64,000 nt of DNA from Candidatus Omnitrophota bacterium (GCA_043826565.1 JBDRPX010000003.1:81293-145292), one strand, 5' to 3'; shown: positions 12,139 to 37,717, counted from the first letter of the stretch. Numbers and translations: made by a program. The notes: a model not told the origin generated them from the letters alone.

Positions 12139-13225
12139 ACGAATGTATGGGATTTGTTTGTTTTTACTAATTATTTTTCACTTGATAAATATTTCCTTGT
12201 GGTATAACAAAAAAATATGGCCTGCCGGCAAGGATTACTCTTATCACTTACAGAGAACATGTACATTTATGAAGGAAGTTGAAAGGCATAAAGACTGGAG
12301 ACAATTTGTTTTTATTGATAAAACGGATTATCCGCCATTTTATTATTGGACCGGGGCTGTTTTGGGGCTATCTTTTAGAACATATAATGTTTTGTTTTTT
12401 AATTCAGCATTCTATTTAGTTGTGCTTTTGGTTTCGGTTTATGGGATAGGAAGGGAGTTGATGAATATCGAGACAGGATGCTTTTCTGCGATAATTTGCT
12501 CTTTTTCCCCGTTTATTTATAATTCTTCTATACAATTTAATTTAGAACTTGCAACGGCGGCATTAGTCAGCCTGATCGTGTGCATGATTGTGTTAAGCCG
12601 AGGATTTAGTCGTGGTTTTTATACTTTTCTGATGGGAGTAGCCTTAGTGATGGGAGGATATACGCGGCAGATGGTTTTTATTTTTGTTGCGGGGCCTGTT
12701 TTGATGGGCATAATTAAGCTTTGTTGTAATAAAAATCTGGATATGTATTTAAAATTAAAGAGATTAGCTTGTCTGGGCATAGTGCTGGGGATATCTTTTG
12801 GCTGTTTGCTGCCGTATTATCATGTTGTTCGATGGACACATCCGATGATTCAAAAAATAAATTTGACTGGATGGGCTCAGGGGGGTAATGTATTTTCTTT
12901 TGAGCATTTGATTTATTACATCAGGGTCATTCCACAGCAAATAGGGTGGGTGTATACTATTGTTTTTGGGCTAAGCCTAGTGGTTTTTCTAAAGGCAGAT
13001 GTAAGTAAAAGACAAATTATTTTTTCATGGAGTATCCCATCGTTATTGATTTTTTCGCTTTTTTTGTTAAAATTCCCCGAATTAACAATAGCAAATATTC
13101 CAGCAATGGCTTTAATTATAGCTTATGCGGTGTGTCTGATAAAACCTTTGTTTTTAAAAAATGGAGTAGCAGTTTTAATTTTAATATTAAGTATGTGTAA
13201 TTATTTTAGGAGTTTCCCATGGTAA
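12122..13225 (+). CDS. Polytopic membrane protein, GT-C-like glycosyltransferase (short form)
   Basis: 367 aa, many hydrophobic segments. 'DYPPFYYW' loop motif is shared with 16670..18355 ('DYPPFFYF'). Overlaps and is coupled to the upstream CBM-like gene. Confidence 0.45.
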   Translation: MMIKDKRMYGICLFLLIIFHLINISLWYNKKIWPAGKDYSYHLQRTCTFMKEVERHKDWRQFVFIDKTDYPPFYYWTGAVLGLSFRTYNVLFFNSAFYLVVLLVSVYGIGRELMNIETGCFSAIICSFSPFIYNSSIQFNLELATAALVSLIVCMIVLSRGFSRGFYTFLMGVALVMGGYTRQMVFIFVAGPVLMGIIKLCCNKNLDMYLKLKRLACLGIVLGISFGCLLPYYHVVRWTHPMIQKINLTGWAQGGNVFSFEHLIYYIRVIPQQIGWVYTIVFGLSLVVFLKADVSKRQIIFSWSIPSLLIFSLFLLKFPELTIANIPAMALIIAYAVCLIKPLFLKNGVAVLILILSMCNYFRSFPW

Positions 13226-14166
13226 AAAAAATATCAATAATAGTACCTGTTTTTAATGAGAGGGATAACTTGGCGGAGTTGAATAAAAAACTAGTCAGTG
13301 TTTTATCGAGATTGGATATGGAGAATGAAATAATTTATGTGGATGATGGTAGTAATGACGGTAGTGCGGATATCTTGAATGAGATACCTGATAAGTATAA
13401 TAATGTTAGAGTTATAACTTTAGCGAAAAATTTCGGGCAGACCCAGGCGATTTCTGCAGGGGTGGACAATTCAGACGGCGATGTTATCATTACTATTGAT
13501 GCTGATCTTCAAAATGATCCGGAAGATATCCCGGCTTTATTAGCTAAACTTAAAGAGGGCTATGATATGGTCAGCGGCTGGAGAGTGAATCGTCAAGATA
13601 ATTTATTGTTTAAAAAGATACCCTCGGCTATTGCTAATCGCATAAGTTCTTTATTGACGAATGTTAATGTCCATGATTTGGGATGTACATTAAAAGTTTA
13701 TAAACGCACAGTATTAGAAGATATTGATTATTATGGTGAAATCCATAGATTTTTGCCGGTTTTTGCGGCTATGCACGGAGCGACGATTGCGGAAATTCCC
13801 GTAAAACATCATAAGAGAAAAAATGGGAAGTCAAAGTACGGGTTATCAAGAATTTATAAAGTAATTCTTGATATGTTTACGATCATGTTTATGTGGAAAT
13901 TTTTAACCAGGCCGGTATATCTTTTCGGAGGCCTGGGAATGATTTCTTTGGGGTTTGCTTCTTTTACGGCTTTGTTTGTTGTAATTAGAAAAATGTTTTT
14001 CGGCGGGGTTTGGGTAAGTCCGCTTTTATTTCTTTTTGTTGTATTTTCTACAATGGGAATTCAGTTTATTCTTATGGGGGTTCTCGGAGAACTTATTATC
14101 CGGCTCTATTATGGTGCGCGTGACCAAAAACGATATAAGATTAAAAGAGTAGAGAGTAGCAAGTAG
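13219..14166 (+). CDS. GT2 polyprenyl-phosphate sugar synthase (ArnC/GtrB/DPM1-like) with C-terminal TM helices
   Basis: 'ISIIVPVFNERDNL'. 'YVDDGSNDGS'. 'TIDADLQNDPEDIP'. 'VSGWR'. Two C-terminal hydrophobic helices. Confidence 0.8.
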   Translation: MVKKISIIVPVFNERDNLAELNKKLVSVLSRLDMENEIIYVDDGSNDGSADILNEIPDKYNNVRVITLAKNFGQTQAISAGVDNSDGDVIITIDADLQNDPEDIPALLAKLKEGYDMVSGWRVNRQDNLLFKKIPSAIANRISSLLTNVNVHDLGCTLKVYKRTVLEDIDYYGEIHRFLPVFAAMHGATIAEIPVKHHKRKNGKSKYGLSRIYKVILDMFTIMFMWKFLTRPVYLFGGLGMISLGFASFTALFVVIRKMFFGGVWVSPLLFLFVVFSTMGIQFILMGVLGELIIRLYYGARDQKRYKIKRVESSK

Positions 14167-14193
14167 AGAGAAGAAAAAATAAAAGATGTTTTA

Positions 14194-14227: not shown

Positions 14228-14232
14228 ATTAA

Positions 14233-15909
14233 ATGAATATATTGGGAATTTGTGATAGTCAGGATGCCGGAGCTGTGTTTATCTGTGACGGCGGTAAAGA
14301 TATTACTGCGGTTAATGAGGAACGTTTGTCGCGGATAAAATTATGCGGAGGATTTCCGGAAAAATCAATCAAGGAGATTTTGCGGATTAAAAAAATTGAT
14401 CCGCAGAAGATTGATCAGGTGGTTTTAGCTTCTAAGATGACGCCATCATTTTTATTAAGAAGTTTTCGTAATGTGCACGCTCGGTTGCGGGGAAATAATA
14501 AGCAATTCAGTTTTTTACTTTCCCTTTACATTCTCTACCAGATGATTGCCCGCAAAACTATAATTTTAGCTAAAATTGAGGAATATTTGTCACGGATTTA
14601 TTTAAAAGCGCGCTTAAAAAAACTGGGAATAAAAAGTAAAGTCAGTGTAATCGATCACCATACCGCGCATGCCTATGCAGCATATAGTACATCAGGATAT
14701 GAACAGGCACTGATTATTACTATCGATGGATTGGGAGATGGCCTTTCTTTTACTGTTAGTATCGGCAAACAAGGCCGGGTTACCAGGATTTTTGAGCAGA
14801 ACGCATTAAATGACATAACCTTGTACTATTCCAGATTAACGGACTTTCTGGGGTTTAAACCTATTCAGGATGAAGGAAAAGTAATGGGATTGGCCGGATA
14901 TTCGAGTAATTATTTCTATCTTCTTCAAGCTCAAAAACTCCTTAAAGTAAAGTCCGGACGATTTCGTTCGAAAAACATATTTTCTCAAGATAAAAAAATA
15001 TATAAGCAGTTAAAAGGTAAAAGCCCTCAGGATATCGCGGCTTCATTTCAAGTTCATGTTGAGCAAGTGCTGAGTGAAATTGTTGATTATTGGGTGGATA
15101 AAACAAAAATAAGCGATGTTGCCTTAGGCGGCGGATTTTTTGCTAATATTAAAGTCAACCAAAAGATCGCGGAATTAAAAAATGTGAACAGTGTTTACGT
15201 CTATCCTCATATGGGAGATGGAGGAATAGCTTTAGGAGCAATATTCGCGGTTATGCAAGTGAAGCCGTTTCGTTTAAAAAATGTTTTCTGGGGACCGTCA
15301 TATTCTCAGCAGGACATAGAGGATGTTCTTAAAAAAAATGGTGTTCGGTATGAAAGGGTAAACAATATAGAAAATCGCATAGCTGAGCTTATCAGCCAAG
15401 GAAAGATCGTGGCGCGTTTTTGCGGAGCAATGGAATATGGACCTCGCGCATTAGGAAATCGTTCTGTTTTAGCTCCGGCTACAGATAAGGATGTGGTGAT
15501 GAAGCTTAATCAAAAACTTGGGCGGGATATGTTTATGCCTTTTGCTCCGGTTGTTTTAGCAGATAAGATTCACGAGTGTTGTCTGAATGTAGAAAAAGCT
15601 ATTTATTCTGCCAATTTTATGAATGTGAGTTTTTCTTGCACGGAATACTTTAAAAAATTATGTCCGGCCGTGGTTCACACTGACGGAACAACTCGTCCCC
15701 AATGTGTTTTTGAGGAAAATAATTTTAAGTTGTTTAAAATTTTAAATAAATATCAGAAGATAACCAAGATTCCGGCAATGATTAATACCAGCTTTAATAC
15801 TCATGAGGAGCCAATTGTGTGTTCTCCGGAAGATGCTTTGAGATCATTTAAGATGGCGAAGCTTGAATATTTAGCGATGGAGAACTTTTTAATAAAAGGA
15901 GACTATTAA
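14233..15909 (+). CDS. Carbamoyltransferase (NodU/CmcH family)
   Basis: N-terminal 'MNILGICDSQDAGAVFICDGGKDITAVNEERLSRIK' matches the family's 'ILG...HD..A.L..DG.I.AA.EER..R.K' start. 558 aa. 'HH.AHA' motif 'DHHTAHAYAAY'. Confidence 0.7.
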   Translation: MNILGICDSQDAGAVFICDGGKDITAVNEERLSRIKLCGGFPEKSIKEILRIKKIDPQKIDQVVLASKMTPSFLLRSFRNVHARLRGNNKQFSFLLSLYILYQMIARKTIILAKIEEYLSRIYLKARLKKLGIKSKVSVIDHHTAHAYAAYSTSGYEQALIITIDGLGDGLSFTVSIGKQGRVTRIFEQNALNDITLYYSRLTDFLGFKPIQDEGKVMGLAGYSSNYFYLLQAQKLLKVKSGRFRSKNIFSQDKKIYKQLKGKSPQDIAASFQVHVEQVLSEIVDYWVDKTKISDVALGGGFFANIKVNQKIAELKNVNSVYVYPHMGDGGIALGAIFAVMQVKPFRLKNVFWGPSYSQQDIEDVLKKNGVRYERVNNIENRIAELISQGKIVARFCGAMEYGPRALGNRSVLAPATDKDVVMKLNQKLGRDMFMPFAPVVLADKIHECCLNVEKAIYSANFMNVSFSCTEYFKKLCPAVVHTDGTTRPQCVFEENNFKLFKILNKYQKITKIPAMINTSFNTHEEPIVCSPEDALRSFKMAKLEYLAMENFLIKGDY

Positions 15910-15912: not shown

Positions 15913-16668
15913 ATGAATAAAAAATTACTTCAATGGTTTTTTACGGAAGAGAAGATAAAGGAACAGACAATTAATGCAAATGATGAATGCGTAGAATTAC
16001 ATCCCGTCCAGGTTATTTCTTTAATTATTGTTACTATAGTTTTTGTTTTTGGGGTTCTTTTATCGGAAAACAGATGGCCCATGAAAGTGGAAACATTGCC
16101 CTCGACTCCGCAGGAAAAGATTGAAACGAAAATAGAGAAAAATTATTTTGTGAATAGGGAGGACATTATAAACGGTGATTTTTCAAAAAAAATGGCATAT
16201 TGGGCAACCGCAGACGGCGGAACTATTTTTAGTGATTCAAAAAGCAGGATGGTTACTTGTGATAAGGATTATGTGTCTGCTCCGTATAGTTTAAAAATTG
16301 AATCCATTGTTCCGGCTAATCGGGTCTATTACATTAAAAAACCTCAGGAGAAAAAAATACAAAACCCTTATGGGTTTGAGGAATGTTCTAATTGGCTGGG
16401 GGTTTTACCTGGGGCAAAAATTAATGCTAGTCTTTGGTATAAGGGGAGCGTGATAACAGTTTATCTGCAATATATTAATAAGAATGGTAAATGGAAAACC
16501 CTGGATAAAATTGTCGGTCCGGTAACTGATGAATGGAAAAAACTTGAACTGGAAAAAATTGCGCCTGCAGATTGCCGGGCTATCTGCATAGAAATAACGT
16601 TAAATCAGGCCCAAGGAATGCCGTTACCGGCTGTCCTAATTGATGATGTTAGTTTAAAAGTTAAATAA
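15913..16668 (+). CDS. Membrane-anchored CBM4/9-like domain protein; paralog of 11347..12138
   Basis: TM 'VISLIIVTIVFVFGVLL'. 'INGDFSKKMAYW'. Confidence 0.45.
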   Translation: MNKKLLQWFFTEEKIKEQTINANDECVELHPVQVISLIIVTIVFVFGVLLSENRWPMKVETLPSTPQEKIETKIEKNYFVNREDIINGDFSKKMAYWATADGGTIFSDSKSRMVTCDKDYVSAPYSLKIESIVPANRVYYIKKPQEKKIQNPYGFEECSNWLGVLPGAKINASLWYKGSVITVYLQYINKNGKWKTLDKIVGPVTDEWKKLELEKIAPADCRAICIEITLNQAQGMPLPAVLIDDVSLKVK

Positions 16669-16669: not shown

Positions 16670-18355
16670 ATGAGAAAAAAAGTTATTTTTATAATTCTTC
16701 TGATTATTATATTATTTCATGTGGGGAATAATATAAGGTATTTATCTTTATGTCCGTTAGCTGAGGGGAAAGACAGTTATGCTCATGTGTATATATTTAT
16801 GGGGTTTTTACACTTGATTTCAACAGGTCAAGATGAGTTATGCTCCATTACTAGGACGAACTGGATAAAAAGTATAAGCGATATTTCAGCGGATTATCCA
16901 CCATTTTTTTATTTTGTTGCTTTGTTAATGCAGCTAATGGGGAGCTTTATAATAAATAATGGTGCTTTGTTTACTTCGACACTGGCATTTGCTGTTTTAT
17001 TATTTAGTGTTTATAAATTAGGTTCTATTAGGGATGAACAAACGGGTGCTTTAGCCGCACTAATATGTTCTTTATACCCGATTATATTTGTGAGCTCTCG
17101 TCATTTTAATATTGAAATGACACTTGCGGCAATGGTTAGTCTTGGGGTATGGATTTTATATAAAACAGATTTTTTTGAAAACCGAATCTTTTCAATTTGT
17201 CTGGGGGTGATTGTTGGGCTAGGCATGCTTACAAAACAAACATTTTTTATGTATCTTTTAGGGCCGTTTTCTTTTATGTGTTTATTAAGTTTAAAAAAGG
17301 ATACAGAGAAGTGTGTTTCTTTGCGCAAGGAGAATATCCTGAGAGCACTTACTGTAGCTGCGGCTTTGGCAGCCCTTTTTTATCTTAATAAAAATATGTG
17401 GGTTAGTATGATTAACCGGTCACAGTTTTCCGGAGGAGCACTAGGAGATAATTTATTATCTTGGGGACACATTTTTTACTATATTCGCTCTCTAGAGACT
17501 CTTTTAGAACCAGTTTTCTTAGTTGTTTTTATACTATCTTTATTTATGATAAGAAAATCTAAAGAGTTTTTTTTACAGATATTGATGCTGTGGTTAATTG
17601 TTCCATTTTGCTTATTTATGTTTTTCAAACTAAAGTATGCGGAATATGCAATTGCTTATTTGCCCGCAATGGCTCTTATCTCAGCGCAGGGGATATTAAG
17701 TATTAATAATAAACTTTCGAGAAATTTAATAATAGTATTTATTGTAGTGGCGGGTTTATCTAATTTTTTTATGATTAGTAACGGCCGGAAAACGTTTTTC
17801 TATGCAAGATGCTACGCGGAGAATCCAATAGTCAACATAATAGATCATGAAAAATTTCAGGATACCAAAGATGCTGCTACTTTTGAAAAAGTAGCGAAAC
17901 AAATAGGTAATTCTAATGTGCTTGTTGGAGTTTTTTACGATGATGCCGGAGGTAAATTCCCCGCGTATTTAATTAGGAAAGTTTTCGCTCATAGTGCAAA
18001 AAAATCAAAGATTATTGACTTTTTTAATTGTGTGCCGGGATTCTTTGACTCTCTGGAATTGTTTGATATTATGATTTTTGTGACATGCTCTGAAAAGGAC
18101 TGGATAGATAAGGAGTCTTTTAGATATTTTATTGAAAAAGTTAATAAAGTGAATTTTAGTAAACTTTACTTATCTGAAGATAAAAATGTTTTCCAGCAGC
18201 AAATTGTAGGTATGAATAGGGTGCAGATTCCGGTAAAAGATTTAGAAAGATTAATTACTATGAAAGATGAGAATTTCACGAAACTGTATTCTATGGAATT
18301 TGATGATGGGATTGCTCAAAAAGTGTACATATATAAGAGGGTAGAGAGAAGATGA
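16670..18355 (+). CDS. Polytopic membrane protein, GT-C-like glycosyltransferase
   Basis: 561 aa, more than 10 hydrophobic segments, 'DYPPFFYF' loop, large C-terminal soluble domain. Immediately follows the CBM-like gene (2-nt gap). Confidence 0.5.
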   Translation: MRKKVIFIILLIIILFHVGNNIRYLSLCPLAEGKDSYAHVYIFMGFLHLISTGQDELCSITRTNWIKSISDISADYPPFFYFVALLMQLMGSFIINNGALFTSTLAFAVLLFSVYKLGSIRDEQTGALAALICSLYPIIFVSSRHFNIEMTLAAMVSLGVWILYKTDFFENRIFSICLGVIVGLGMLTKQTFFMYLLGPFSFMCLLSLKKDTEKCVSLRKENILRALTVAAALAALFYLNKNMWVSMINRSQFSGGALGDNLLSWGHIFYYIRSLETLLEPVFLVVFILSLFMIRKSKEFFLQILMLWLIVPFCLFMFFKLKYAEYAIAYLPAMALISAQGILSINNKLSRNLIIVFIVVAGLSNFFMISNGRKTFFYARCYAENPIVNIIDHEKFQDTKDAATFEKVAKQIGNSNVLVGVFYDDAGGKFPAYLIRKVFAHSAKKSKIIDFFNCVPGFFDSLELFDIMIFVTCSEKDWIDKESFRYFIEKVNKVNFSKLYLSEDKNVFQQQIVGMNRVQIPVKDLERLITMKDENFTKLYSMEFDDGIAQKVYIYKRVERR

Positions 18356-19407
18356 ACGCATTGCTTTCTCAGGCAAATAATCTATTTGTTTTTTCTAAAT
18401 TATTTTCTGCTTCACATATTATAAATAAAATGTTTAATATTCCGATCACCGTGAATATGCTGATCACTTCTAAGTGCAATCTGCATTGTGGGATTTGCTC
18501 GGCTCGGGATATGCTGGATACAGATACGGATCTTACCTATGAGCAGATAGGGGAATTTATTAATACGATATTCAAATGCTCCCCGGCAGTATTTATCGGC
18601 GGAGGTGAGCCTTTTTTAAGGAAAGATATCTTTGATATCCTTGAGTGCTTAAAAAAAAACCGGCTTAAGTATGGGATTGTTACTAATGGGACAGTGCTGA
18701 ATCAGAAGAAAATTGACCGCTTGTTTACGGTTACCCCCGAGGTTTTGATATTTTCGATATACGGCCCGAAAGTGCTTCATGAGTCAATGACCGGTATGCC
18801 CGATTCTTTTGATCGGATTTCGGATAATATAAAATATGCGGTAAAAAAGAATAAAACAAAGATAATTTTGAATTGTGTTATCAATGAAAGCAACTATGAA
18901 CATCTTGAGGAATGTATATTGCTGGGGCAGGAGTTTGGCGTTGCCCAGGTCCGTTTTGAACATCTTATTTTTGTAACGGAGAAAGAATATGAAGCGCATA
19001 TTTCTGTATGTAAGGATAAATTTTCTGAAGAAGAATGTAAGCTTACGACCAATGTGCAGAATATCGATAACCCGGAAATGGGACAGGTATTAAAAGATGA
19101 GATTTTTCGTTTGCAAAAGAAATTCAGAAAATTTGTTTTATTTAAACCATATCTTAATAAAAATGAATTGTCGGGGTGGTATAATGACGGTTTTAAATTT
19201 AATCGGAATTGTTCATTCATCAGGCACTCTGTTTTTATTAAACACAACGGAGATATTATCCCCTGTCAGTTTTTATCAAATTATGTTTTAGGAAATATAA
19301 AAAAAAATGATCTCATTGAAACCTGGCGGGGAAGAAAAAAGAAACAATTTGATGCGGTGCTTAAGAAAGGTATTTTGCCCGGATGTGTGCGGTGCTGTAA
19401 ACTTTAG
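18352..19407 (+). CDS. Radical SAM protein with SPASM/twitch C-terminal Cys cluster
   Basis: 'ITSKCNLHCGICS' CxxxCxxC. 'GGGEPFL'. C-terminal 'CSFIRH...GDIIPCQF...LPGCVRCC'. Confidence 0.8.
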   Translation: MNALLSQANNLFVFSKLFSASHIINKMFNIPITVNMLITSKCNLHCGICSARDMLDTDTDLTYEQIGEFINTIFKCSPAVFIGGGEPFLRKDIFDILECLKKNRLKYGIVTNGTVLNQKKIDRLFTVTPEVLIFSIYGPKVLHESMTGMPDSFDRISDNIKYAVKKNKTKIILNCVINESNYEHLEECILLGQEFGVAQVRFEHLIFVTEKEYEAHISVCKDKFSEEECKLTTNVQNIDNPEMGQVLKDEIFRLQKKFRKFVLFKPYLNKNELSGWYNDGFKFNRNCSFIRHSVFIKHNGDIIPCQFLSNYVLGNIKKNDLIETWRGRKKKQFDAVLKKGILPGCVRCCKL

Positions 19408-19472: not shown

Positions 19473-20021
19473 ATGTTATTAGACAAAAGTTATAAGAAAT
19501 TAAAAGAAATATTTCAGGCGCATATGCTGGTAAAAGCAGATACGAGAATTCTGGATATCGGCTGCGGACGGAGAGGGAATTTTGCTTGTCTTCCCCGAGA
19601 GGTATATACGGGAATAGATGTAGAGCTTAACAAAAAAAACAGAGATGACGGTAATTATTTTCTAATGGATGCAAAAAAGCTTGTTTTTGAAGATAAATAT
19701 TTCGATTATATGATCTCGACCAGCTTTTTTCATCATCTTTCCGACGCGGAATGCGCAGCTGTTTGTGAACAGATAAAAGCTAAGCTGAAAGCCGACGGGA
19801 CAGTGGTAATTGCTGATGGAATATATCCGGAATCAAAACTTAATATTCCCGGGTGGCTGATTCGTTCTCTTGACCGGGGAAGGTATGTTAGACGCAGAAA
19901 TTCGTTTAGGAATATGTTTTTAAAGGACTTTGTTATCGAAAAGGAATATTATTTTGTCGATAAGATTTTCGCTTATAGTGTATTGATATTAAAAAATAAA
20001 AGTATGGATAATGAAAATTAA
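19473..20021 (+). CDS. Class I SAM-dependent methyltransferase (small)
   Basis: Motif I 'ILDIGCGRRGN'. 182 aa. 'TVVIADG' (motif II/III-like). Confidence 0.6.
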   Translation: MLLDKSYKKLKEIFQAHMLVKADTRILDIGCGRRGNFACLPREVYTGIDVELNKKNRDDGNYFLMDAKKLVFEDKYFDYMISTSFFHHLSDAECAAVCEQIKAKLKADGTVVIADGIYPESKLNIPGWLIRSLDRGRYVRRRNSFRNMFLKDFVIEKEYYFVDKIFAYSVLILKNKSMDNEN

Positions 20022-26652: not shown

Positions 26653-26673
26653 GGACAGGCCTTGTGCCTGTCC
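26653..26673 (+). terminator. Intergenic GC-rich hairpin (8-bp stem, 5-nt loop) directly after the stop
   Basis: ggacaggc-cttgt-gcctgtcc, flanked by a gggaca direct repeat. Confidence 0.35.
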
Positions 26674-26685
26674 GGGACAAAAATT

Positions 26686-29036: not shown

Positions 29037-30137
29037 ATGAAAAATATTACGAGAAGAGAATTTTTAAAAAATACCATAGGCTGGGGAGCAACATTAGCAT
29101 ATGCGCAGGCTTTACCGTCTTTTTTATATGCTGATAGCGATCCCAGTACGGTAGCGATTGCCAAAGGTGGGGATGTGACCAAAGTTACGGAACAGGCTTT
29201 AATGAATATCGGCGGAATGTCTGCAGTGGTAAATCCGGGGCAAAGAGTATTTATAAAACCGAATTATATTGCCGGTGGTTTTATGGGGCATGATCCGGTA
29301 TTATCCGGAGAGATCCCGCATCCGGAAGTAGTCGCAGCTTGTGCCAGAGAATGTGTGAAAGCCGGGGCGAAACAGGTTATTATCGGGGAATGGTTTGAGC
29401 GCCCGTTAACTATTGAATGGGGAGGTAAACCGGGAAAATCCGGGGCTCAGATAGAAAAGCTTATAGAAAAAATTAATAAAAAATTTGGGCAAAAGGTAGC
29501 GCTTGTTGATCTTAGAAAGCATACTGGTTCATTTTTATATGTTCCTTCGCAGACTAAGCTTGGTTGGCTGGCTATTCCTAATCTGGTTGCGGAAGCTGAT
29601 GTGATTATTTCCGTAGCGGTACTAAAGACACATCATTATCCCATACCGGTTACTTTTGGTATGAAAAATTTTGTGGGGATCATGCCGTCTATATTATACG
29701 GAGAACCACGCATGAAACTTCATGAAGCCGGGATAAGCGAGGTTGTCGTGGATATAACTAAAGGGATTAGGCCCAAACTTACGGTACTTAGCGGAGTTTA
29801 TGGCATGGAGGGAGAAGGTGTGGTGGTCTCATTTGGCGGGGAGCCGGTTGATATTGCTCAACGGATCGGCGGGTGCTTAGTGATTGCCGGGTGTGATCCC
29901 ATAGCTACAGATGCTACGGCAACGCGTCTTATTACAAAGAACTGGCATCCTCGGCCGAAAGATGAAGATCTGGGGGTCCCCTGGTATGTGAAACATCTGC
30001 GGTTAGGGCATCAGCAGGGACTCGGACAGATAAGAAAGTCGAAAATTATTGTTAAAGGTCAAAGTCTTGATCAAGTAGCTATGGATTGGAAGATGCCTAA
30101 GAATAATACTTATCCGGAATTGCCCGGGTTTGTTTGA
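29037..30137 (+). CDS. DUF362-like domain protein with Tat signal peptide
   Basis: 'MKNITRREFLKNTIGWGATLAYAQA' (twin-arginine RREFLK). The rest resembles DUF362 (recalled from memory; not verified). Confidence 0.45.
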   Translation: MKNITRREFLKNTIGWGATLAYAQALPSFLYADSDPSTVAIAKGGDVTKVTEQALMNIGGMSAVVNPGQRVFIKPNYIAGGFMGHDPVLSGEIPHPEVVAACARECVKAGAKQVIIGEWFERPLTIEWGGKPGKSGAQIEKLIEKINKKFGQKVALVDLRKHTGSFLYVPSQTKLGWLAIPNLVAEADVIISVAVLKTHHYPIPVTFGMKNFVGIMPSILYGEPRMKLHEAGISEVVVDITKGIRPKLTVLSGVYGMEGEGVVVSFGGEPVDIAQRIGGCLVIAGCDPIATDATATRLITKNWHPRPKDEDLGVPWYVKHLRLGHQQGLGQIRKSKIIVKGQSLDQVAMDWKMPKNNTYPELPGFV

Positions 30138-30219: not shown

Positions 30220-30771
30220 ATGAAAATTTTTAGGGCAAGTATTATTGCATTGTTTTTGGTTTTGCTGGCAGTTTCCGGGACTTTAGCCGAGCCGCAAAGC
30301 TATTCCTTTGCGGCAATCAAGGCTAATGGGGCTTGGGATAAAGCGAAGATAGATGATCGGGAAGCTATTATTACAGATAAAGCCAAAGCAAATGCATATA
30401 TTAAAATTGAAGTTCCCCAAGACGGTATTTATCAATTGTATATAGGTTTGTATCATAACTGGAGGAAGTTTTGCCCTTATTTATATGTTGAGGCTGTAGA
30501 TAGTAATCGTAAAAAGTTTTCCGGATATGTCTACTCAGAGCCGCGTTGGTATATGGAAAAAGGTCAGGGCAGATGGGAATTCCGTTCGCCCAGCGCGACC
30601 CCTTTTTGGCGGCTGACAAAAGGGGAAATGAAGATAAAATTTTGGCTGGTAGCGATGAATTCATGTTGGGAGCATAAAGAAGTGGAAGTTGAAGATCTCG
30701 TGGCTGTGGATGAATTTGTCTTAATACCGTTTAACGAAAATACAAGAATACAATATAATATAATAAGATAG
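30220..30771 (+). CDS. Secreted hypothetical protein (183 aa)
   Basis: Signal peptide 'MKIFRASIIALFLVLLAVSGTLAEP'. No recognisable motifs. Confidence 0.4.
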   Translation: MKIFRASIIALFLVLLAVSGTLAEPQSYSFAAIKANGAWDKAKIDDREAIITDKAKANAYIKIEVPQDGIYQLYIGLYHNWRKFCPYLYVEAVDSNRKKFSGYVYSEPRWYMEKGQGRWEFRSPSATPFWRLTKGEMKIKFWLVAMNSCWEHKEVEVEDLVAVDEFVLIPFNENTRIQYNIIR

Positions 30772-30782: not shown

Positions 30783-32183
30783 ATGCGTATTGCACTGGTA
30801 TTTCCAAATTACGGACATAAAGTATTCTCTGAAAATCTTAAATTTGTGGATGAGGAATTTTGTCTTGCCCCGCCAATAATATTAGCCTATATCGCGGCTA
30901 TTCTCGAGAGGCATGGGCACGAAGTAATGCTTCTGGATATTCGTGCGCTTGCTTTAACTAAAGAAGAAGCGTTGAAGAAAATCAGAGAGTTTAACCCGGA
31001 AATGCTTGGGTTCAGGGCCGAAACATATCATTTTTACGATGCCCTGGCCTTGATAAAATATCTGAAAGCTAATCTTAAAATACCTGTTTTTACCGGAGGA
31101 GTCAATATGACATTGTATCCCCGGGAGACCATAGAACATGAGGAGATAGATTATGGGATAATCGGGGAAGCAATTGAATCTTTGCCCAAAATGATCAGAG
31201 CTCTGGGAAGAAGAGAACAATTAAAGGGGATTCCGGGAGTTGTCTATAAAAGTAAAACCGGAGGGATTATTATTAATCCGGCATCTAATGAATTGGCGGA
31301 TTTTAATGAATATCCTTTTCCGGCAAGGCATCTTCTTCCTAATGAAAAATACTATTCTTTTATATCTCAGAGAAAAAACTTTACTTTGATGCTTAAGAGT
31401 ACCGGATGTCCTTTTAAGTGCAGTTTTTGTGCTATCCCGAATGCCTACAGATTTCGTTCGCCGCAGAGTGTAATTAAAGAAATAGAAGTTTGCTATAATG
31501 ATTTTAACATAAGAGAGATAGATTTTTTTGACGCGGTATTTTTTATGCCTCGGGAAAGCGTGCGGGAGTTATTTAGCCTTCTTAAAGAACGCAAACTAGA
31601 CTTGGAATGGTCTTGCCGTTCGCGGGTAGACATTGTTGATGAGGTAATTTTGAAAGAGGCCGCGGAAGCCGGGTGCCGGCAGATTTATTTTGGGATTGAA
31701 TCGGTAGATCAGAATGTTCTTAATAGCATAAATAAGAATGTCAGCCCGGATATGGTCAAACGTACGATTAACTTATCCCGGGATTATGGGATAAAAACTA
31801 TGGGGTTTTTCATGGTCGGGAATGAAAAAGATACTGCTGAGAGCGTAAGGAAAAGCATAAAATTCGCTAAAGACCTCAAACTTGATTTTGTCCAGGTTTG
31901 TAAGACAATCGCTAAGCCGGGAACGGAATTGCATAAACAGGTTAATGCCGCGACCGGTATAGATTTTTGGCAGAGACATCTACAGCAAGCTCCCCTTACC
32001 GAACGCCTGCCGGCGCCGTGGAGCAGTTTGACGGAAGAAAAAAAGACTTCTTTGACTAAAGAGTTTTATTTTAGGTTTTATTTCCGTCCGATAATTATTT
32101 GGAAAATTCTTTTAAGGTTAAAGTCATTTAGCGAGTTTAAAAGGTATTGTCGGGCGGCACTTAAATTTTTGAGGTTTTTATGA
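30783..32183 (+). CDS. B12-binding-domain radical SAM protein
   Basis: 'MRIALVFPNYGH...APPIILAYIAAILERHGHEVMLLD'. 'LKSTGCPFKCSFCAIP'. Confidence 0.8.
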   Translation: MRIALVFPNYGHKVFSENLKFVDEEFCLAPPIILAYIAAILERHGHEVMLLDIRALALTKEEALKKIREFNPEMLGFRAETYHFYDALALIKYLKANLKIPVFTGGVNMTLYPRETIEHEEIDYGIIGEAIESLPKMIRALGRREQLKGIPGVVYKSKTGGIIINPASNELADFNEYPFPARHLLPNEKYYSFISQRKNFTLMLKSTGCPFKCSFCAIPNAYRFRSPQSVIKEIEVCYNDFNIREIDFFDAVFFMPRESVRELFSLLKERKLDLEWSCRSRVDIVDEVILKEAAEAGCRQIYFGIESVDQNVLNSINKNVSPDMVKRTINLSRDYGIKTMGFFMVGNEKDTAESVRKSIKFAKDLKLDFVQVCKTIAKPGTELHKQVNAATGIDFWQRHLQQAPLTERLPAPWSSLTEEKKTSLTKEFYFRFYFRPIIIWKILLRLKSFSEFKRYCRAALKFLRFL

Positions 32184-33163
32184 AGGTAAAAGACAAATTT
32201 TTGTGTTTAGCCGCAATTGTTAAATGCCGGGTATTTGGTAAAGCCATACCTTTAGCTGTGCGTTTGCAGCTTACGAACCGATGTACTCTGCAGTGCAAAT
32301 ATTGCAAACTATGGCAGACGGAATCAAAAGAGTTGAATACGGCGGAAGTTTTTTCTTTATTAGATGAATTAGCAAAATTAGGCACGAAGAGAATATCTTT
32401 TAGCGGAGGAGAGCCTTTATTGAGAGAGGATATTGCCGAGATTTTTCGCTATGCGGGAACTAAGGGGATGTATTCGGAAATGAACTGTAATGGAACTTTG
32501 GTTAGCCGGAATATCGAAAAACTCACAGATCTGGATTTTCTTAAACTTAGCTTAGATGGGCCCCCGGAAGTTCATGATTTTTTAAGGGGGAAGGGCTCTT
32601 ATGAAAAAGTTATCGAGGCTGCGGATATCTGTAAAAAAAAGGGGATTAGGTTTGGGTTTGCGACAACATTGACAAAATATAATATTGATAAATTAGATGA
32701 GATTTTAGCAATAGCTAAAAAATATGAGACGATTGCTGCGTTTCAGCCGATTAAAAAGCTCTATAGAGGAATATCGGATATTTCGGAACTCTCCCCGGGG
32801 GAAAAAGAATTTAAAATAGCGATAGAGAGATTAATTATTACAAAACGTTCGGGAAACAAAAATATTAGAAACTCTTTGCGCGGTTTGCAGCATATATATG
32901 ATTGGCCAAGATATGAAAAACTAAGATGCTGGGCCGGCAAGATATTCTGCATAATTGAAGCTAATGGAGATGTGATGCCCTGTGACCGGATAAGTTACAA
33001 TAGTAAACTGCCGAATTGCTTGGAACCCGATATGAAGCAGGCTTGGGCAATACTTCCTGCGGTGGTTTGTTCCGGCTGCGGTTTTTGCGGTTCTCTGGAA
33101 TTGAATTACTTAATGTCTTTTAAACCGGGGATATTAGGATCAATAAGAAAGATCTTGGGTTAA
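32180..33163 (+). CDS. Radical SAM/SPASM protein
   Basis: 'LQLTNRCTLQCKYCKLW'. 'SFSGGEPLL'. C-terminal 'CWAGKIFC...MPCDR...CSGCGFCG'. Confidence 0.8.
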   Translation: MKVKDKFLCLAAIVKCRVFGKAIPLAVRLQLTNRCTLQCKYCKLWQTESKELNTAEVFSLLDELAKLGTKRISFSGGEPLLREDIAEIFRYAGTKGMYSEMNCNGTLVSRNIEKLTDLDFLKLSLDGPPEVHDFLRGKGSYEKVIEAADICKKKGIRFGFATTLTKYNIDKLDEILAIAKKYETIAAFQPIKKLYRGISDISELSPGEKEFKIAIERLIITKRSGNKNIRNSLRGLQHIYDWPRYEKLRCWAGKIFCIIEANGDVMPCDRISYNSKLPNCLEPDMKQAWAILPAVVCSGCGFCGSLELNYLMSFKPGILGSIRKILG

Positions 33164-33177
33164 ATATTCCGGCAAGA

Positions 33178-34215
33178 TTGAGAATAAAAAAGATGAACAT
33201 GATGTTATTGAATAAGCTGTCTTTGGGACTGAAAACAGTTAAAGCCAGACTAACCAATGAGAGAATTCCTCTAGTAGTAAGTTTTGCCGTTACTTACCGA
33301 TGTAATCGGCATTGTCAGTATTGTAATTGGCCTACTGCAGATTGTGAGGAACTTAGTTTTCATCAGGCAAAGGAAGTTCTGGATAAGCTGGTTATTTTGG
33401 GGGTTAAGAGGCTGCAATTTACCGGGGGAGAACCGTTTTTAAGAAAGGACATGGCTGAGCTAATAAGTCACGCTAAAAATAAAAATATAAATATATTTGT
33501 TTGCGTGAATTCCAACGGTAAGGGGGTTCCTGAAGCATTAGAGAGAATCAAAGCTGTTGATATGGTGTGCTTAAGTATCGAAGGCCCGGAGGAAGTTCAT
33601 GATGCTATCCGGGGTAAGGGGTCTTATCAGGAAGTAATCTGTGCGGCGCAGGCGGTGCGTAAGAACAAGATCAGGCTCAAATTTACGTCTACGTTGAATA
33701 AGTTAAATATAAGTAGTGTTGAATATCTGCTTGGTTTTGCGCGGCGTTTTGATACTAAGGTTAGTTTTCAGATACTGGATACTTACTGCTTGGGGAGTAA
33801 GCAGGAAAATCCTTTATTGCCTAATTCCCTGGAAGTGAAACGTGTTTTGCAGGATTTGCTGAGATTTAAAGGTGATCCTGACTATGGCCGGTTCATTGGT
33901 AATTCCCGGATTGGTTTATTGAATTTGCAGGGCAGAAAGGCACAGTCATTTTCTCGCTGCGCGTCAGGACGAGTGCTTTTTCGGGTTACCCCTAACGGTT
34001 ATATGTATCCTTGTGCGGCGGCAACATTTAAAGGCAGTGGATTGGAAAATTACGCTATTGATCTTGCGCATACCGATGTTAAAGAAGTGAAAGATAAATT
34101 GCGGGCTTTTCACTATACTGATTTATCGTGCCGGTGTGCTTGTACGAACAGAATCGAGGTTAATTTACTCTGGAATTTTAATATCGGTTCATTGATCGAT
34201 ATCATTGGTTTGTAG
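33178..34215 (+). CDS. Radical SAM/SPASM protein
   Basis: 'VTYRCNRHCQYCNWP'. 'FTGGEPFL'. C-terminal 'CASGRV...YPCAAA...LSCRCACT'. Confidence 0.8.
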   Translation: MRIKKMNMMLLNKLSLGLKTVKARLTNERIPLVVSFAVTYRCNRHCQYCNWPTADCEELSFHQAKEVLDKLVILGVKRLQFTGGEPFLRKDMAELISHAKNKNINIFVCVNSNGKGVPEALERIKAVDMVCLSIEGPEEVHDAIRGKGSYQEVICAAQAVRKNKIRLKFTSTLNKLNISSVEYLLGFARRFDTKVSFQILDTYCLGSKQENPLLPNSLEVKRVLQDLLRFKGDPDYGRFIGNSRIGLLNLQGRKAQSFSRCASGRVLFRVTPNGYMYPCAAATFKGSGLENYAIDLAHTDVKEVKDKLRAFHYTDLSCRCACTNRIEVNLLWNFNIGSLIDIIGL

Positions 34216-34221
34216 GCCGAA

Positions 34222-35790
34222 TTGTTGTTTTTTAAAATGGGGAAAAATATATCTATGCCTAAAAAACAGATAAATGTCGTATTATTAAGCATTCTTCTAC
34301 TTGCTTTTGTTGTCCGGGTATTCAAGCTTGATATTACAGGTTTTTGGCTAGTAGAAGCAAAAATTGTAAGTTTTGCCAAACACAGCTGGAGTGAGTTGTT
34401 TGGATTTACTTTGATGTATCGTCCGGTTTATTTGCTGCTGGCAAAGCTATGGATAGGAGTAGTTGGCACAAAAGAGGTGATGGTCCGTTTACTGCCGGTT
34501 ATTTTAGGGACTGGTACTGTGGCGGCTATTTATTTATTAGCTAAGGAACTGTGGAACAAGAATGCCGGGGTTTTTGCGGCGTTTATTATGGCGGTATCTT
34601 GCGTACACGTTGTTTTTGCCCGGGAAGCAAGAGCCGATTTTATCTTAATGACTTTACTGGTTATGTTTTCTCAGTTAATGATGCTTCGTATTTTTAAAAA
34701 AGACAGGTTAAACGAGTACTTTTATCTTTTTTTTATTAATGTGCTTATTTTGTTCACTAATCCTTACGGTGTTTTTTGGATCATAACCCAGCAGGTTTGC
34801 TATTTTGTTTATTCTAAAAAAAATGATAATAAACGATGGCTGCTTACTACAACTATAATATCTTTTGTTATTATATTATGGTATTTTTTTGTGCTTTCAT
34901 ATTCTCCGGAGATAGGTATTAGCTGGTTTAAATCTCCGGCGGTTAAAGACATTTTTAATACGTATGAGGCTTTTTCTTGCGGCGGAGCAAAATTAAAAGG
35001 CACCGGTTTTGCTTCATTGCCCGGGGCATTTAATATGGTTATCCCGCGAATCTTAATGTTGGTGTATACATTATGTTTTGTTGGGGAAGTGTTCTTTTCT
35101 TCTGTAAATTATAAAAAAAATATGCTGATTTGCTGGCTTGTCATACCCATAGTTTTGGCTTATGGGTATTCTCGGATTTTTACACCTATATATATGTACA
35201 GATATCTTCTTTTTGCTTCCCCGGCGTATTATTTGCTGGTAGCCAGATTTTTAACCACCTTAAGATTAAAATTACGTTCTGTTTTTATAATAATAATTGT
35301 ACTTCTTTCTTTTTTTACATTAAGTAACATTTATAAGATTGACAAAGAACAAGCAAAAGGATTTAGGGAAGGGATTGCCTTTCTGAAGGAAAATATCAAA
35401 GAAGGAGATACTATTATTATTTGTCCGGCTGAGATGTTGACTGTTTTTATGTACTATTACGATTATGATAATCCGAAAATTTTAGGTCGCATTGATGACG
35501 AGCTTGGATTGAAAACTAAGGAAGAATGGGTTCTTGATTTTTTCTATAAAGGGAATCGTATCATTGGTATTCCGTTTAGTTTGCTGGAGGATTTTTCGCA
35601 AGATTATGATTTTGAATCGCTCTCATTCGCTCAGGAGAGCAATATTTGGTTTGTAAATAGCCCGGATTGGCCATTGAATGAAAATGCTGTTTTCTTAGCA
35701 CAGTTTTTTAAGAATAGATATATAACAAAGGAAGACCGGTTTTTTGATTATCATGGTTTTTATATAAAACATTTAACTTTAGATGAGTAA
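34222..35790 (+). CDS. Polytopic membrane protein, GT-C-like (family 39-like)
   Basis: 522 aa with ~12 hydrophobic segments plus a C-terminal soluble domain. Confidence 0.45.
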   Translation: MLFFKMGKNISMPKKQINVVLLSILLLAFVVRVFKLDITGFWLVEAKIVSFAKHSWSELFGFTLMYRPVYLLLAKLWIGVVGTKEVMVRLLPVILGTGTVAAIYLLAKELWNKNAGVFAAFIMAVSCVHVVFAREARADFILMTLLVMFSQLMMLRIFKKDRLNEYFYLFFINVLILFTNPYGVFWIITQQVCYFVYSKKNDNKRWLLTTTIISFVIILWYFFVLSYSPEIGISWFKSPAVKDIFNTYEAFSCGGAKLKGTGFASLPGAFNMVIPRILMLVYTLCFVGEVFFSSVNYKKNMLICWLVIPIVLAYGYSRIFTPIYMYRYLLFASPAYYLLVARFLTTLRLKLRSVFIIIIVLLSFFTLSNIYKIDKEQAKGFREGIAFLKENIKEGDTIIICPAEMLTVFMYYYDYDNPKILGRIDDELGLKTKEEWVLDFFYKGNRIIGIPFSLLEDFSQDYDFESLSFAQESNIWFVNSPDWPLNENAVFLAQFFKNRYITKEDRFFDYHGFYIKHLTLDE

Positions 35791-35812
35791 AATAAAGGGA
35801 TATTAAGTTTCT

Positions 35813-37717
35813 ATGTGTGGAATTTGTGGTAAATATTATTTTGACCCATCGCGCCGGGTTGAGCAGGGTTTATTATTAAAAATGATGAAGAAACTATACC
35901 GCCGCGGGCCGGATGAGCAGGGGGTTATTATAGAGGCGAATGCCGGGCTTGCTTGTCAGAGATTAAGGATTATCGATAGGCTGAATGGACAGCAGGCAGT
36001 TTTGAATGAAGATAAAACAGTCTGGGCTGTATTTAACGGAGAAATATATAATTATCAGGAATTAAGAAATGATCTTTTGAATAAAGGGCATGTTTTAAAA
36101 ACAAAATGTGATTCGGAAATTATCCCGCATATGTTTGAGGAATACGGCCCGGCTTTTGTGGAAAAGCTCAATGGAATGTTTGCTATTGCGGTTTATGACC
36201 GTAACCAGAATACAATTATTCTGGCCCGGGATAGAACAGGGATAAAACCTTTATATTATGCGCTTATCGGCAATGCTCTTGTTTTTGCTTCCAGCCTTAA
36301 AACTTTATTGGTTGATAAAGATATCCCCAAGGAACTTGATGCGGTGGGATTGGATTATTATTTTTCGCATAATTTTTTCCCGGGTGAGTATACTCCGGTA
36401 GCGAAAATCAAAAAATTACTTCCCGGCCATTTTTTGGTTTGTAATTCTAAAGAGATAAAAATAAAAAAGTATTGGGAACTTAATTATAAACAAAAATCGA
36501 AAAAGCTTAAGGATATTGATTATATTAAAGAATTTAATTCAGTATTTAATGCCGTGGTAAAAAGTCAGCTTGAAGCCGAGGTTCCGGTGGGGTTATTTCT
36601 TAGCGGCGGAATTGATTCCGGAGGATTGGCGGAATATGTTTCTCGGCTTAAGACTTCTTTAAAAACATTTAGTGTGGGCTTTCAGGAAGGTACGTTTGAT
36701 GAACGAAAATATGCCGGGATCATTGCGTCTCAGATGGAGACAGAGCATGAGCATACGGTAATTCCTGACTCATTGCCGGTACTGATGGAAAGAATTAGTG
36801 ATGCTTTGGATATCCCTTTGGGGGAAGGGGCATTTGTCCCGTTGTTTGTTTTGTCTGAATTTGCGAAAAAAAAAGTTGGAGTAGTTCTTTCCGGAGAAGG
36901 CGCAGATGAACTTTTTGGCGGCTATGATACATATATAGCTGATATCCTGGCGGAGTATTTTAGAAAGTTGCCTCCGGTAATCAGGCAAAAGTGGCTTAAA
37001 TCATTGGTGCGGCGTTTGCCCCTGGATTATCGCTGGATGAGTGTTCGTTTTAAACTGGATTTGTTTAGCCAGGGGGTACAGGATAGAGTTCAGCCGGCGC
37101 ATTATTATTGGCGTTTATTATGGACACCAGATGAAAAATCTTCTTTGTATTCTGATATTTTTAGCCAAAAACTTCGGGAAACCGGCGCTTTAGCGGCAGC
37201 CGATTTTTTTTGCCGGACATATGATTATTTAGGGAATAGGCACTATCTGGAAAAAGCAATGTTTTATGATACAAAGATTGTTTTACCGGATGATATGCTG
37301 CAGAAAGTTGATCTGGCAAGTATGTATCATTCATTAGAGGTGCGTGTTCCTTATCTGGACAACCGGATAATTGATTTTTCTTTAGGCTTGCCGCTGAGTA
37401 TGAAAATAAGCAAATTAAAGAAAAAAGTTTTTCTTAAAGAAGCTTTTAAAGAATATTTACCAAAACAAATTATACAACGGCCTAAGCATGGTTTAAGTGT
37501 TCCGGTGGAAAAATGGCTGCGGTTTGATTTGCACGATTTCACCGGCGATGTCTTGAGTACTGCCAATGCTGGAGATGAAAATGTTATAAATAAGAAATAT
37601 TTATTGAAAATTTTCAGGGAACATGTGCAGGGAGCCGCGGATCATGGTAGAAAGCTTTGGAATATATTAATGTTTCGTTTGTGGTTAGATAGTTGTAGGA
37701 AAGAGAACTTATTGTAA
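35813..37717 (+). CDS. asnB: Asparagine synthase (glutamine-hydrolysing) family amidotransferase
   Basis: N-terminal 'MCGICG' (Cys2 nucleophile, Ntn glutaminase domain). PP-loop 'FLSGGIDSGG'. 634 aa. Confidence 0.85.
   Translation: MCGICGKYYFDPSRRVEQGLLLKMMKKLYRRGPDEQGVIIEANAGLACQRLRIIDRLNGQQAVLNEDKTVWAVFNGEIYNYQELRNDLLNKGHVLKTKCDSEIIPHMFEEYGPAFVEKLNGMFAIAVYDRNQNTIILARDRTGIKPLYYALIGNALVFASSLKTLLVDKDIPKELDAVGLDYYFSHNFFPGEYTPVAKIKKLLPGHFLVCNSKEIKIKKYWELNYKQKSKKLKDIDYIKEFNSVFNAVVKSQLEAEVPVGLFLSGGIDSGGLAEYVSRLKTSLKTFSVGFQEGTFDERKYAGIIASQMETEHEHTVIPDSLPVLMERISDALDIPLGEGAFVPLFVLSEFAKKKVGVVLSGEGADELFGGYDTYIADILAEYFRKLPPVIRQKWLKSLVRRLPLDYRWMSVRFKLDLFSQGVQDRVQPAHYYWRLLWTPDEKSSLYSDIFSQKLRETGALAAADFFCRTYDYLGNRHYLEKAMFYDTKIVLPDDMLQKVDLASMYHSLEVRVPYLDNRIIDFSLGLPLSMKISKLKKKVFLKEAFKEYLPKQIIQRPKHGLSVPVEKWLRFDLHDFTGDVLSTANAGDENVINKKYLLKIFREHVQGAADHGRKLWNILMFRLWLDSCRKENLL

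Follow-up and report, generated by a model that had tools for sequence, protein, structure and literature searches.

Mycobacterial arabinogalactan is made with WecA, Glf, GlfT1/2, the ATP-binding cassette (ABC) transporter Wzm/Wzt (Rv3781/Rv3783), decaprenyl-P-arabinose and the Emb/Aft glycosyltransferases of the GT-C class. The outline of this pathway is partly described in PMC11127046, which also provides precedent for ABC-exported glycans that are decorated by GT-C enzymes from polyprenyl-P-sugars. A comparable system is predicted for a stretch of 64,000 nucleotides from a Candidatus Omnitrophota bacterium (GCA_043826565.1, JBDRPX010000003.1:81293-145292), which is called the window here. 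This stretch is the central part of a very large cluster of at least 79 kb. All functional steps proposed below are based on homology, gene order and domain sharing. On this basis, the cluster probably builds an ABC-transporter-dependent, polyprenol-linked surface glycan that is elaborated by periplasmic GT-C enzymes. Possible, though short of probable, is a further proposal for Omnitrophota and related uncultured bacteria: the lipid-linked glycan would be rewritten by dozens of radical S-adenosylmethionine (rSAM) enzymes, and a repeat of about 210 amino acids (aa) would be a glycan-recognition module shared by Wzt, rSAM enzymes and periplasmic GT-C.

The likeness to arabinogalactan synthesis lies in WecA-type priming, UDP-galactopyranose mutase (here a homologue), Wzm/Wzt, and many GT-C that use, or here are predicted to use, polyprenyl-P-sugars after export. 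The two systems belong to different phyla, and the scores are far below the equivalog cut-offs. The donor synthase here is of ArnC/GtrB type, whereas mycobacteria use the phosphoribosyl pyrophosphate (PRPP)-based decaprenylphosphoryl-5-phosphoribose (DPPR) route. No Lcp ligase is seen here, and only here are there 27 rSAM genes and a repeat-bearing Wzt.

Other examples can be found in the ABC-dependent O-antigens of Klebsiella and Citrobacter, which undergo three-component periplasmic glycosylation (GtrA/GtrB/Gtr*; PMC11127046). These share with the present cluster priming, cytoplasmic glycosyltransferases, Wzm/Wzt, a polyprenyl-P-sugar synthase and GT-C. However, no flippase or WaaL was found here, there are nine GT-C candidates instead of one, and the Wzt extension consists of five new repeats and not of Wzt_C. 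For the streptococcal rhamnose polysaccharides (group A carbohydrate, GAC, and serotype c carbohydrate, SCC), side-chain addition of GacI/GacL type is reported (10.1101/180810; PMC11754754). In these systems, an ABC-exported, polyprenol-linked backbone is decorated on the outside by several GT-C with undecaprenyl-P-sugars from GtrB-like GT2 enzymes, much as is proposed here. Unlike the present system, these are Gram-positive wall polymers with a rhamnan backbone and no rSAM tailoring.

Modification of lipid A by ArnC/ArnT is related at the level of single enzymes, since a GT2 of the window aligns with ArnC and a profile of its GT-C matches ArnT. In contrast, ArnA, ArnB, ArnD, ArnE and ArnF are absent here, and the context is one of polymer export. 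The Wzt proteins of E. coli O9a and Aquifex have a C-terminal carbohydrate-binding domain (PMC9445017), and the Wzt of this cluster likewise has a C-terminal extension, modelled as all-beta, on an ABC ATPase of glycan export. Its repeat differs from the known domain: it is about 210 aa long, has a predicted beta-supersandwich fold, occurs in 2-7 tandem copies, does not match Wzt_C, and is also fused to rSAM and GT-C proteins. From the three closest analogues, namely the arabinogalactan, O-antigen and streptococcal systems, the cluster differs in its rSAM load, its repeat-bearing Wzt, its number of GT-C, and in that the sequence read contains no flippase or ligase. Its many rSAM genes and the new extension of Wzt set it apart from a conventional polysaccharide locus.

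A first-pass annotation, made from the window alone, had found no Wzx, Wzy, Wzz, ABC transporter or phosphoglycosyltransferase in it. This is borne out by Pfam searches of its open reading frames (ORFs) of at least 100 aa; homology was otherwise assessed by Pfam, NCBIfam and PDB sequence searches. The intergenic gaps in the window are too short to hide an exporter or priming gene. From the absence, that annotation had argued for a possible protein or lipid acceptor. The flanks were read from overlapping contigs of the same genome (run SRR26275510), which agree with the window without mismatch (0 mismatches over 5.4-16 kb). About 80 kb was read in all, reaching 2.7 kb past the window end.

Both a priming enzyme and an exporter are present upstream, on the same strand. 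A WecA-like Glycos_transf_4 priming transferase lies at window -12946 to -11930; its full length aligns with the WecA model of NCBIfam (88.6 bits, less than the equivalog cut-off). Wzm (ABC2_membrane, 259 aa) and Wzt (ABC_tran, 1337 aa) follow at -10462 to -5592. Between the priming gene and Wzm is a homologue of UDP-galactopyranose mutase (PDB 4dsg, 1.8e-40, nearly full length). The best NCBIfam matches of Wzm are galactan Wzm and KpsM, and those of the nucleotide-binding domain of Wzt are TagH and galactan Wzt. After Wzt, which ends at -5592, come five paralogous rSAM genes and then the 1183-aa rSAM protein that opens the window. The first-pass annotation had recognised that an ABC-transporter set in the flank would point to a polysaccharide locus, and such a set, Wzm with Wzt, stands just upstream. 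Its suggestion to look there for priming, flippase and polymerase genes yielded the priming transferase; no flippase or polymerase was found in the flanks read, and Wzx, Wzy and Wzz are absent from window and flanks alike. Thus, the "missing" priming and export genes merely lay outside the window. Since the WecA-like enzyme and Wzm/Wzt are in the same gene string, an ABC-exported glycan is the better reading than a protein or lipid acceptor. Most likely, the acceptor is a polymer attached to a lipid carrier.

The string itself is long. The 39 genes from the priming transferase to window position 41511 all point in one direction, with gaps of at most 175 bp and many overlaps, and nearly all ORFs of the window are on the plus strand. 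The G+C content is about 37% in the window, and GC skew is positive throughout. A scan for promoters and terminators at 41-45 kb of the window gave sites no more frequent than in shuffled sequence. Upstream, a weak Y1_Tnp (tyrosine transposase-like) gene (L005 1917-2588, window about -13669 to -12998) adjoins the priming transferase, and a pilin-like gene lies still further upstream. These two genes are probably the 5' edge of the cluster.

The extension of Wzt links the exporter to other proteins of the cluster. An all-against-all comparison revealed homology of this extension to two segments of a 1443-aa rSAM protein and to the N-terminal portion of the 1183-aa one. Profile iteration resolved ten copies of a repeat of about 210 aa; Wzt has five of them, and the 1183-aa and 1443-aa proteins have three and two, respectively. 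Outside the window the repeats are at L005 6722-9991 and L005 15147-15773. No Pfam family matches the repeat even at E <= 1, Wzt_C included. An AlphaFold2 (AF2) model from the four window copies is an all-beta supersandwich (predicted template modelling score, pTM, 0.69) with a fold like that of carbohydrate enzymes, and the Wzt extension occupies the position of the known glycan-binding domain of Wzt. It is conjecture that the methyltransferase at 19473 or the carbamoyltransferase acts as chain terminator.

The repeat family is large. A profile search of 1.84 billion proteins found 596 family representatives, although a word-indexed homologue search with the C-terminal 443 aa of Wzt had given no matches, which reflects a limit of that tool; a metagenome scan with the same 443 aa also found nothing. 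In 82 of the best 150 of the 596 members, 2-7 copies come after an N-terminal ATPase of Wzt type; about 19 have rSAM domains, and eight are PMT-type GT-C with 2-4 copies after the membrane region, on the periplasmic side. One is a sulfatase. Two of the 150 are single polypeptides with ATPase, repeats and rSAM/SPASM (P0031, 1856 aa; P0144, 1217 aa), which could be true fusions or merged metagenome gene calls. The occurrence of one repeat in Wzt, rSAM proteins and GT-C is the main evidence that all three deal with one type of molecule.

A similar architecture is found again in other Omnitrophota genomes and in metagenome contigs. A genome of the PVC (Planctomycetes-Verrucomicrobia-Chlamydiae) group, which includes Omnitrophota, is collinear with the cluster from Wzt onward at 34-73% identity. 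In this genome, L002, the order is Wzt, double rSAM, B12-type rSAM, GT4, ArnC-like GT2, carbamoyltransferase, anchored protein, GT-C, rSAM, methyltransferase, two GT-C, DegT, GT-C and GT4. The 1443-aa double rSAM protein is 62% identical to its L002 homologue, and 40 loci with it were found in a metagenome scan. An Omnitrophota genome (L006) has the same head; in another (L007), the GT4 is preceded by 17 rSAM genes in a row. Five metagenome loci have the full head of priming transferase, mutase homologue, Wzm and Wzt. The full head is directly upstream of the double-rSAM homologue in L020, L028, L033 and L043, and elsewhere stands before rSAM genes that precede it. Other metagenome loci have GT4, ArnC, carbamoyltransferase and GT-C genes downstream. 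Arrays of paralogous rSAM(/SPASM) genes encoding about 330 aa occur at L005 10001-15126 and L007 769-17149, and also in L016, L017 and L019. The copy number of these small rSAM paralogues is zero in L002, five here, at least nine in L007 and L016, and up to a dozen or more elsewhere, which suggests rapid diversification of the arrays.

One related metagenome cluster has in its head a 134-aa protein with three hydrophobic segments (L028 4403-4807, L029 1640-2044). That head also contains a carbamoyltransferase homologue and Wzm; the window has no counterpart of the 134-aa protein, which could be a small flippase-like protein.

The features of the window are as follows; in the text, genes are named by their first coordinate.

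38-3079, plus: C-terminal 1013 aa of the 1183-aa rSAM/SPASM protein (Pfam, repeat mapping); three N-terminal repeats of about 210 aa, then rSAM/SPASM; two repeats lie within the window (nt 230-847, 890-1525)
3076-4062, plus: SGNH/GDSL hydrolase with N-terminal anchor (transmembrane (TM) helix 21-39; Pfam; PDB matches to generic esterases only)
4092-8423, plus: 1443-aa double rSAM fusion (Pfam, repeat mapping), in the order HpnJ-like B12-type rSAM, repeat (nt 5739-6395), rSAM/SPASM, repeat (nt 7764-8420)
8416-10068, plus: B12-binding rSAM
10167-11321, plus: cytoplasmic GT4 (Pfam; 73% identity to the L002 homologue)
11347-12138, plus: N-anchored 263-aa protein without Pfam match, paralogue of 15913; opens an "anchor + GT-C" module
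12122-13225, plus: short (367 aa) GT-C candidate, paralogue of 16670 (30-32% identity; PMT_2 25.1 bits, just under the 26.1 cut-off)
13219-14166, plus: ArnC/GtrB-type polyprenyl-phosphate GT2 with C-terminal TM helices (Pfam, NCBIfam, PDB)
14233-15909, plus: NodU/CmcH-type carbamoyltransferase (Pfam; 64% identity in L002)
15913-16668, plus: N-anchored 251-aa protein without family match, paralogue of 11347
16670-18355, plus: GT-C (PMT_2; Pfam)
18352-19407, plus: rSAM/SPASM
19473-20021, plus: small SAM methyltransferase (Methyltransf_11)
20011-21426, plus: GT-C (PMT_2; Pfam)
21392-22933, plus: GT-C (PMT_2; Pfam), 32% identity to 20011
22869-24146, plus: DegT-family aminotransferase, 425 aa (Pfam 8.7e-70)
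24137-25549, plus: GT-C (PMT_2; Pfam)
25549-26652, plus: cytoplasmic GT4 (Pfam)
26662-28152, plus: HpnJ-like B12-type rSAM
28143-29024, plus: soluble GT2
29037-30137, plus: DUF362 protein (Pfam)
30220-30771, plus: N-anchored 183-aa protein without family match
30783-32183, plus: B12-type rSAM, AprD4 the best solved relative
32180-34215, plus: two paralogous small rSAM genes, 32180-33163 (with SPASM) and 33178-34215
34222-35790, plus: GT-C (PMT_2; Pfam)
35813-37717, plus: AsnB-type glutamine amidotransferase (Pfam, NCBIfam)
37734-38741, plus: small rSAM, paralogue of 32180
38795-41511, plus: module of a secreted 282-aa protein (faint DUF3108-like match) and a YfhO-type GT-C (39682-41511)
41542-42558, minus: rSAM/SPASM
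42757-43464, plus: WbqC-like protein (Pfam 3.4e-78)
43472-44584, minus: N-anchored SGNH/GDSL hydrolase, one TM helix
44865-47583, plus: module of a secreted 289-aa DUF3108-like protein and a YfhO-type GT-C (45727-47583), 40-41% identity to the 38795/39682 pair
47580-57325, plus: rSAM block with B12-type (47580, 52982), small (49057) and Zn-ribbon Tes/GDGT-MAS-like genes (50197, 51584, 54588, 55973)
57360-59379, plus: DegT aminotransferase (57360-58430; Pfam 1.1e-84), then rSAM/SPASM (58432-59379)
59394-63882, plus: fifth Tes-like rSAM (59394) and two B12-type rSAM genes (60743, 62323)
63776-64000, plus: 5' end of a 235-aa GT2 without TM helices

Radical SAM genes make up 21 of the 47 ORFs in the window. 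With five more upstream and one downstream there are 27, and they are interleaved with glycosyltransferase genes, often overlapping them. The DegT gene at 57360 is followed 1 bp later by the rSAM/SPASM gene 58432, whose best solved relative is BtrN (2e-10). In butirosin synthesis, BtrN acts as an rSAM alcohol dehydrogenase whose product goes to a DegT-type transaminase (the BtrN/BtrS pair). By analogy, a route of anaerobic oxidation followed by transamination is a reasonable conjecture for 57360/58432. The closest solved relative of the B12-type rSAM at 30783 is AprD4, a sugar diol dehydratase, and HpnJ is the best NCBIfam match for three B12-type domains. Five Zn-ribbon paralogues (50197-51534, 51584-52951, 54588-55949, 55973-57325 and 59394-60743; 26-53% identity) have an N-terminal zinc ribbon and an rSAM domain, and most have a hydrophobic segment near residue 350. 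A single hydrophobic segment is also seen just after the rSAM domain in the proteins of 4092-8423 (residues 517-535) and 8416-10068 (residues 518-536). It may be a membrane-association helix; a true TM pass is unlikely, because Fe-S domains come after the segment.

The enzymes that make and use lipid-linked sugars were largely described correctly in the first-pass annotation. The GT2 at 13219 is of ArnC/GtrB type over its full length (Glycos_transf_2, 7.5e-35). It aligns end to end with the solved ArnC 9hwj (3e-63, residues 2-311 against 7-313) and with GtrB 5ekp (1.9e-36), and it also matches DPMS 5mlz (5e-20). It has hydrophobic C-terminal helices at residues 238-288 and stays below the ArnC equivalog cut-off (NCBIfam 236 vs 529 bits). 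The GT2 at 63776 had been named as a second enzyme of this kind. Its GT2 fold is upheld, but the full-length protein, cut off in its 3' part by the window end and completed from the overlapping contig, has only 235 aa and no TM anchor, and is less ArnC-like than the enzyme at 13219.

All eight GT-C candidates proposed for the window are polytopic. Five pass the PMT_2 gathering score (16670, 20011, 21392, 24137 and 34222), and 39682 passes that of YfhO. The candidate at 45727 has no Pfam match and is 41% identical to 39682; it and 12122 are called GT-C by paralogy. A profile of the six PMT_2-type paralogues matches ArnT 5ezm and AglB/STT3 in the PDB. Just past the window, after GT2 63776, are another B12-type rSAM gene and a ninth GT-C candidate, which matches the GT-C profile in hhalign (93%, E 2.6e-7) and is named GT39 family protein by NCBI. 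The proposed pairing of a polyprenyl-P-sugar synthase with many GT-C is thus supported by homology.

Four of the GT-C belong to two duplicated two-gene modules, in which 11347+12122 resembles 15913+16670 and 38795+39682 resembles 44865+45727. Each module consists of an N-anchored or secreted protein of no assigned family followed by a GT-C. The pattern NGDFS...W...DDV/I in 11347 and 15913 may resemble that of CBM4_9-type modules; Pfam gives nothing at E <= 1. An AF2 model of 15913 from two sequences was too poor for a fold search (mean predicted local distance difference test, pLDDT, 47).

The conventional tailoring enzymes also withstood the comparison. These include the carbamoyltransferase at 14233 (Carbam_trans_N 1.9e-37, Carbam_trans_C 1.3e-52), the small SAM methyltransferase at 19473 (Methyltransf_11), two DegT enzymes (22869-24146, 8.7e-70; 57360-58430, 1.1e-84) and WbqC at 42757-43464 (3.4e-78). 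Two stretches of the DegT protein at 22869, apart from each other, match the profile of the family, as would fit an internal insertion. It is no pseudogene, because its full-length L002 homologue keeps the same architecture at 50% identity. AsnB at 35813 is present as described (Asn_synthase 3.8e-84; NCBIfam asparagine synthase 411, above 267). However, uronic or nonulosonic acids, which had been offered as its substrates, find no support, as the cluster has no sugar dehydrogenase or nonulosonate genes. Similarly, the two TM-anchored SGNH hydrolases (3076, 43472) are real, but the O-acyl role given to them is not borne out, with no AT3 or MBOAT acyltransferase in the cluster. Across the roughly 80 kb, no sugar dehydrogenase/dehydratase, nonulosonate gene, AT3 or MBOAT acyltransferase was detected. 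Homology supports the general capacities that had been listed: amination, amidation, carbamoylation, methylation and the handling of esters. For transamination, as for the carbamoyl, methyl and amide transfers, homology indicates the capacity and not the substrate.

Some genes had gone unlisted. These are the GT4 enzymes at 10167 and 25549, the soluble GT2 at 28143 and the DUF362 protein at 29037, together with five rSAM genes within 13219-37717 (18352, 26662, 30783, 32180 and 33178). The two GT4 and the soluble GT2 are the predicted candidates for chain building in the cytoplasm.

A pathway can be proposed from these parts. The WecA-like phospho-N-acetylhexosamine transferase, 13 kb upstream, would prime polyprenyl phosphate. 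The mutase homologue could supply a furanose donor, and the two GT4 and one soluble GT2 would extend the chain in the cytoplasm. At the cytoplasmic membrane face, the carbamoyltransferase, methyltransferase, AsnB, DegT and the rSAM battery may then tailor the glycan. Possible rSAM reactions on it are C-methylation, oxidation followed by transamination, deoxygenation and C-C coupling; where DegT is paired with the BtrN-like enzyme, the rSAM protein could form the keto intermediate anaerobically. The polymer would be exported by Wzm/Wzt, with the five Wzt repeats at the position of the glycan-binding domain. Polyprenyl-P-monosaccharides would be made by the ArnC-like GT2 and, probably, also by the short GT2 at 63776. 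The eight GT-C of the window and the one beyond would add these sugars to the exported glycan in the periplasm, perhaps assisted by the membrane-anchored accessory proteins and the SGNH hydrolases.

Several observations weigh against this proposal. Rewriting of a polysaccharide by rSAM enzymes has no precedent that could be found in the literature on rSAM, Omnitrophota, Wzm and O-antigen, nor was a published description found of rSAM-rich Wzm/Wzt clusters or of the repeat. Because all rSAM proteins score below the curated NCBIfam cut-offs, no reaction can be assigned to any of them. The model of the repeat is moderately good overall (mean pLDDT 66) and poor at residues 115-170. Its fold is also seen outside carbohydrate biology, as in the periplasmic domain of YidC and in a virus capsid protein; carbohydrate binding by the repeat is therefore no more than likely. 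Pfam detects no GtrA/SMR or MATE flippase domain for polyprenyl-P-sugars in the roughly 80 kb, and there is no small polytopic ORF on the cluster strand in window or flanks. No WaaL/Wzy_C or LCP (LytR_cpsA_psr) ligase was found in the same sequence; ligase genes are often encoded away from the cluster. Apart from the mutase homologue, the cluster has no nucleotide-sugar genes.

The relatives of the rSAM proteins raise the alternative that two systems are interleaved, an ordinary exported-glycan locus and an unrelated set of rSAM enzymes for lipid remodelling, such as tail-to-tail coupling, methylation, or hopanoid- or ladderane-like chemistry. The five Zn-ribbon proteins are indeed closest to the lipid-tail-coupling Tes/GDGT-MAS (also to TrsS), with a PDB match to 7tol (9e-42) that covers mainly the rSAM core. 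B12-type rSAM proteins match the "lipid biosynthesis B12-binding/radical SAM" and HpnJ/HpnR models, and several rSAM proteins have a hydrophobic segment. However, all scores are far under curated cut-offs (138-176 bits for the Zn-ribbon five against 450 for the NCBIfam Tes equivalog), and there are no lipid-synthesis genes in the cluster. The rSAM genes are interleaved and overlapping with glycosyltransferase genes, and in relatives they come directly after Wzt. Two rSAM proteins bear the Wzt repeat, and Wzt-rSAM fusion proteins exist. Two interleaved systems are thus unlikely. Somewhat less likely still is that polyprenyl-P-sugars and GT-C glycosylate a protein or membrane lipid directly, in the manner of PMT/Pgf, ArnT or YfhO, so that no polymer is built on a carrier. 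In its favour, some members of the PMT_2 and YfhO families glycosylate proteins or lipids, PgfS of a protein glycosylation system ranks second among the NCBIfam matches of GT2 13219, and, as no ligase was found, some GT-C could use non-glycan acceptors. Against it are a WecA-like enzyme, Wzm and Wzt in one gene string whose arrangement is kept in relatives, three cytoplasmic glycosyltransferases, and the Wzt repeat on GT-C enzymes of other genomes.

Two further possibilities start from the chemistry of the rSAM enzymes. A ribosomally synthesized and post-translationally modified peptide (RiPP), matured by rSAM/SPASM enzymes and afterwards glycosylated and ABC-exported, is very improbable as the product. 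Many SPASM-type proteins weakly match PqqE, SkfB and sactipeptide maturase models, though none at a peptide-maturase cut-off, and lasso-peptide cyclases are among the homologues of AsnB, which nevertheless scores far higher against asparagine synthase and exopolysaccharide (EPS) amidotransferase models. No precursor-like ORF was found, intergenic gaps are tiny, and a 47-aa ORF in L007 does not resemble a precursor. Neither a leader peptidase nor a RiPP recognition element was detected, and the exporter, which is of the Wzm/Wzt (ABC2) type, lies next to an enzyme for priming polyprenyl phosphate. Least probable of all is a small-molecule pathway like those of aminoglycosides or aminocyclitols, composed of BtrN-, AprD4- and TobZ-like enzymes with DegT and GT4. 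BtrN and AprD4 are the best solved relatives, and carbamoyltransferase and DegT enzymes are present, but the similarity is restricted to the rSAM core, there is no inosose synthase, and pathways of this kind have no use for nine GT-C, a priming transferase or Wzm/Wzt.

Peptides, cofactors, lipids and small sugars are all familiar targets of rSAM chemistry. If the proposed rewriting of an exported, carrier-linked glycan is true, glycans of unprecedented chemistry would be made in a widespread, mostly uncultured phylum, and the clusters would hold a large set of candidate anaerobic sugar-modifying enzymes. The repeat would be a new substrate-recognition domain that links exporter, tailoring enzymes and periplasmic glycosyltransferases. 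Together, these would form a glycan counterpart of RiPP-style post-assembly tailoring.

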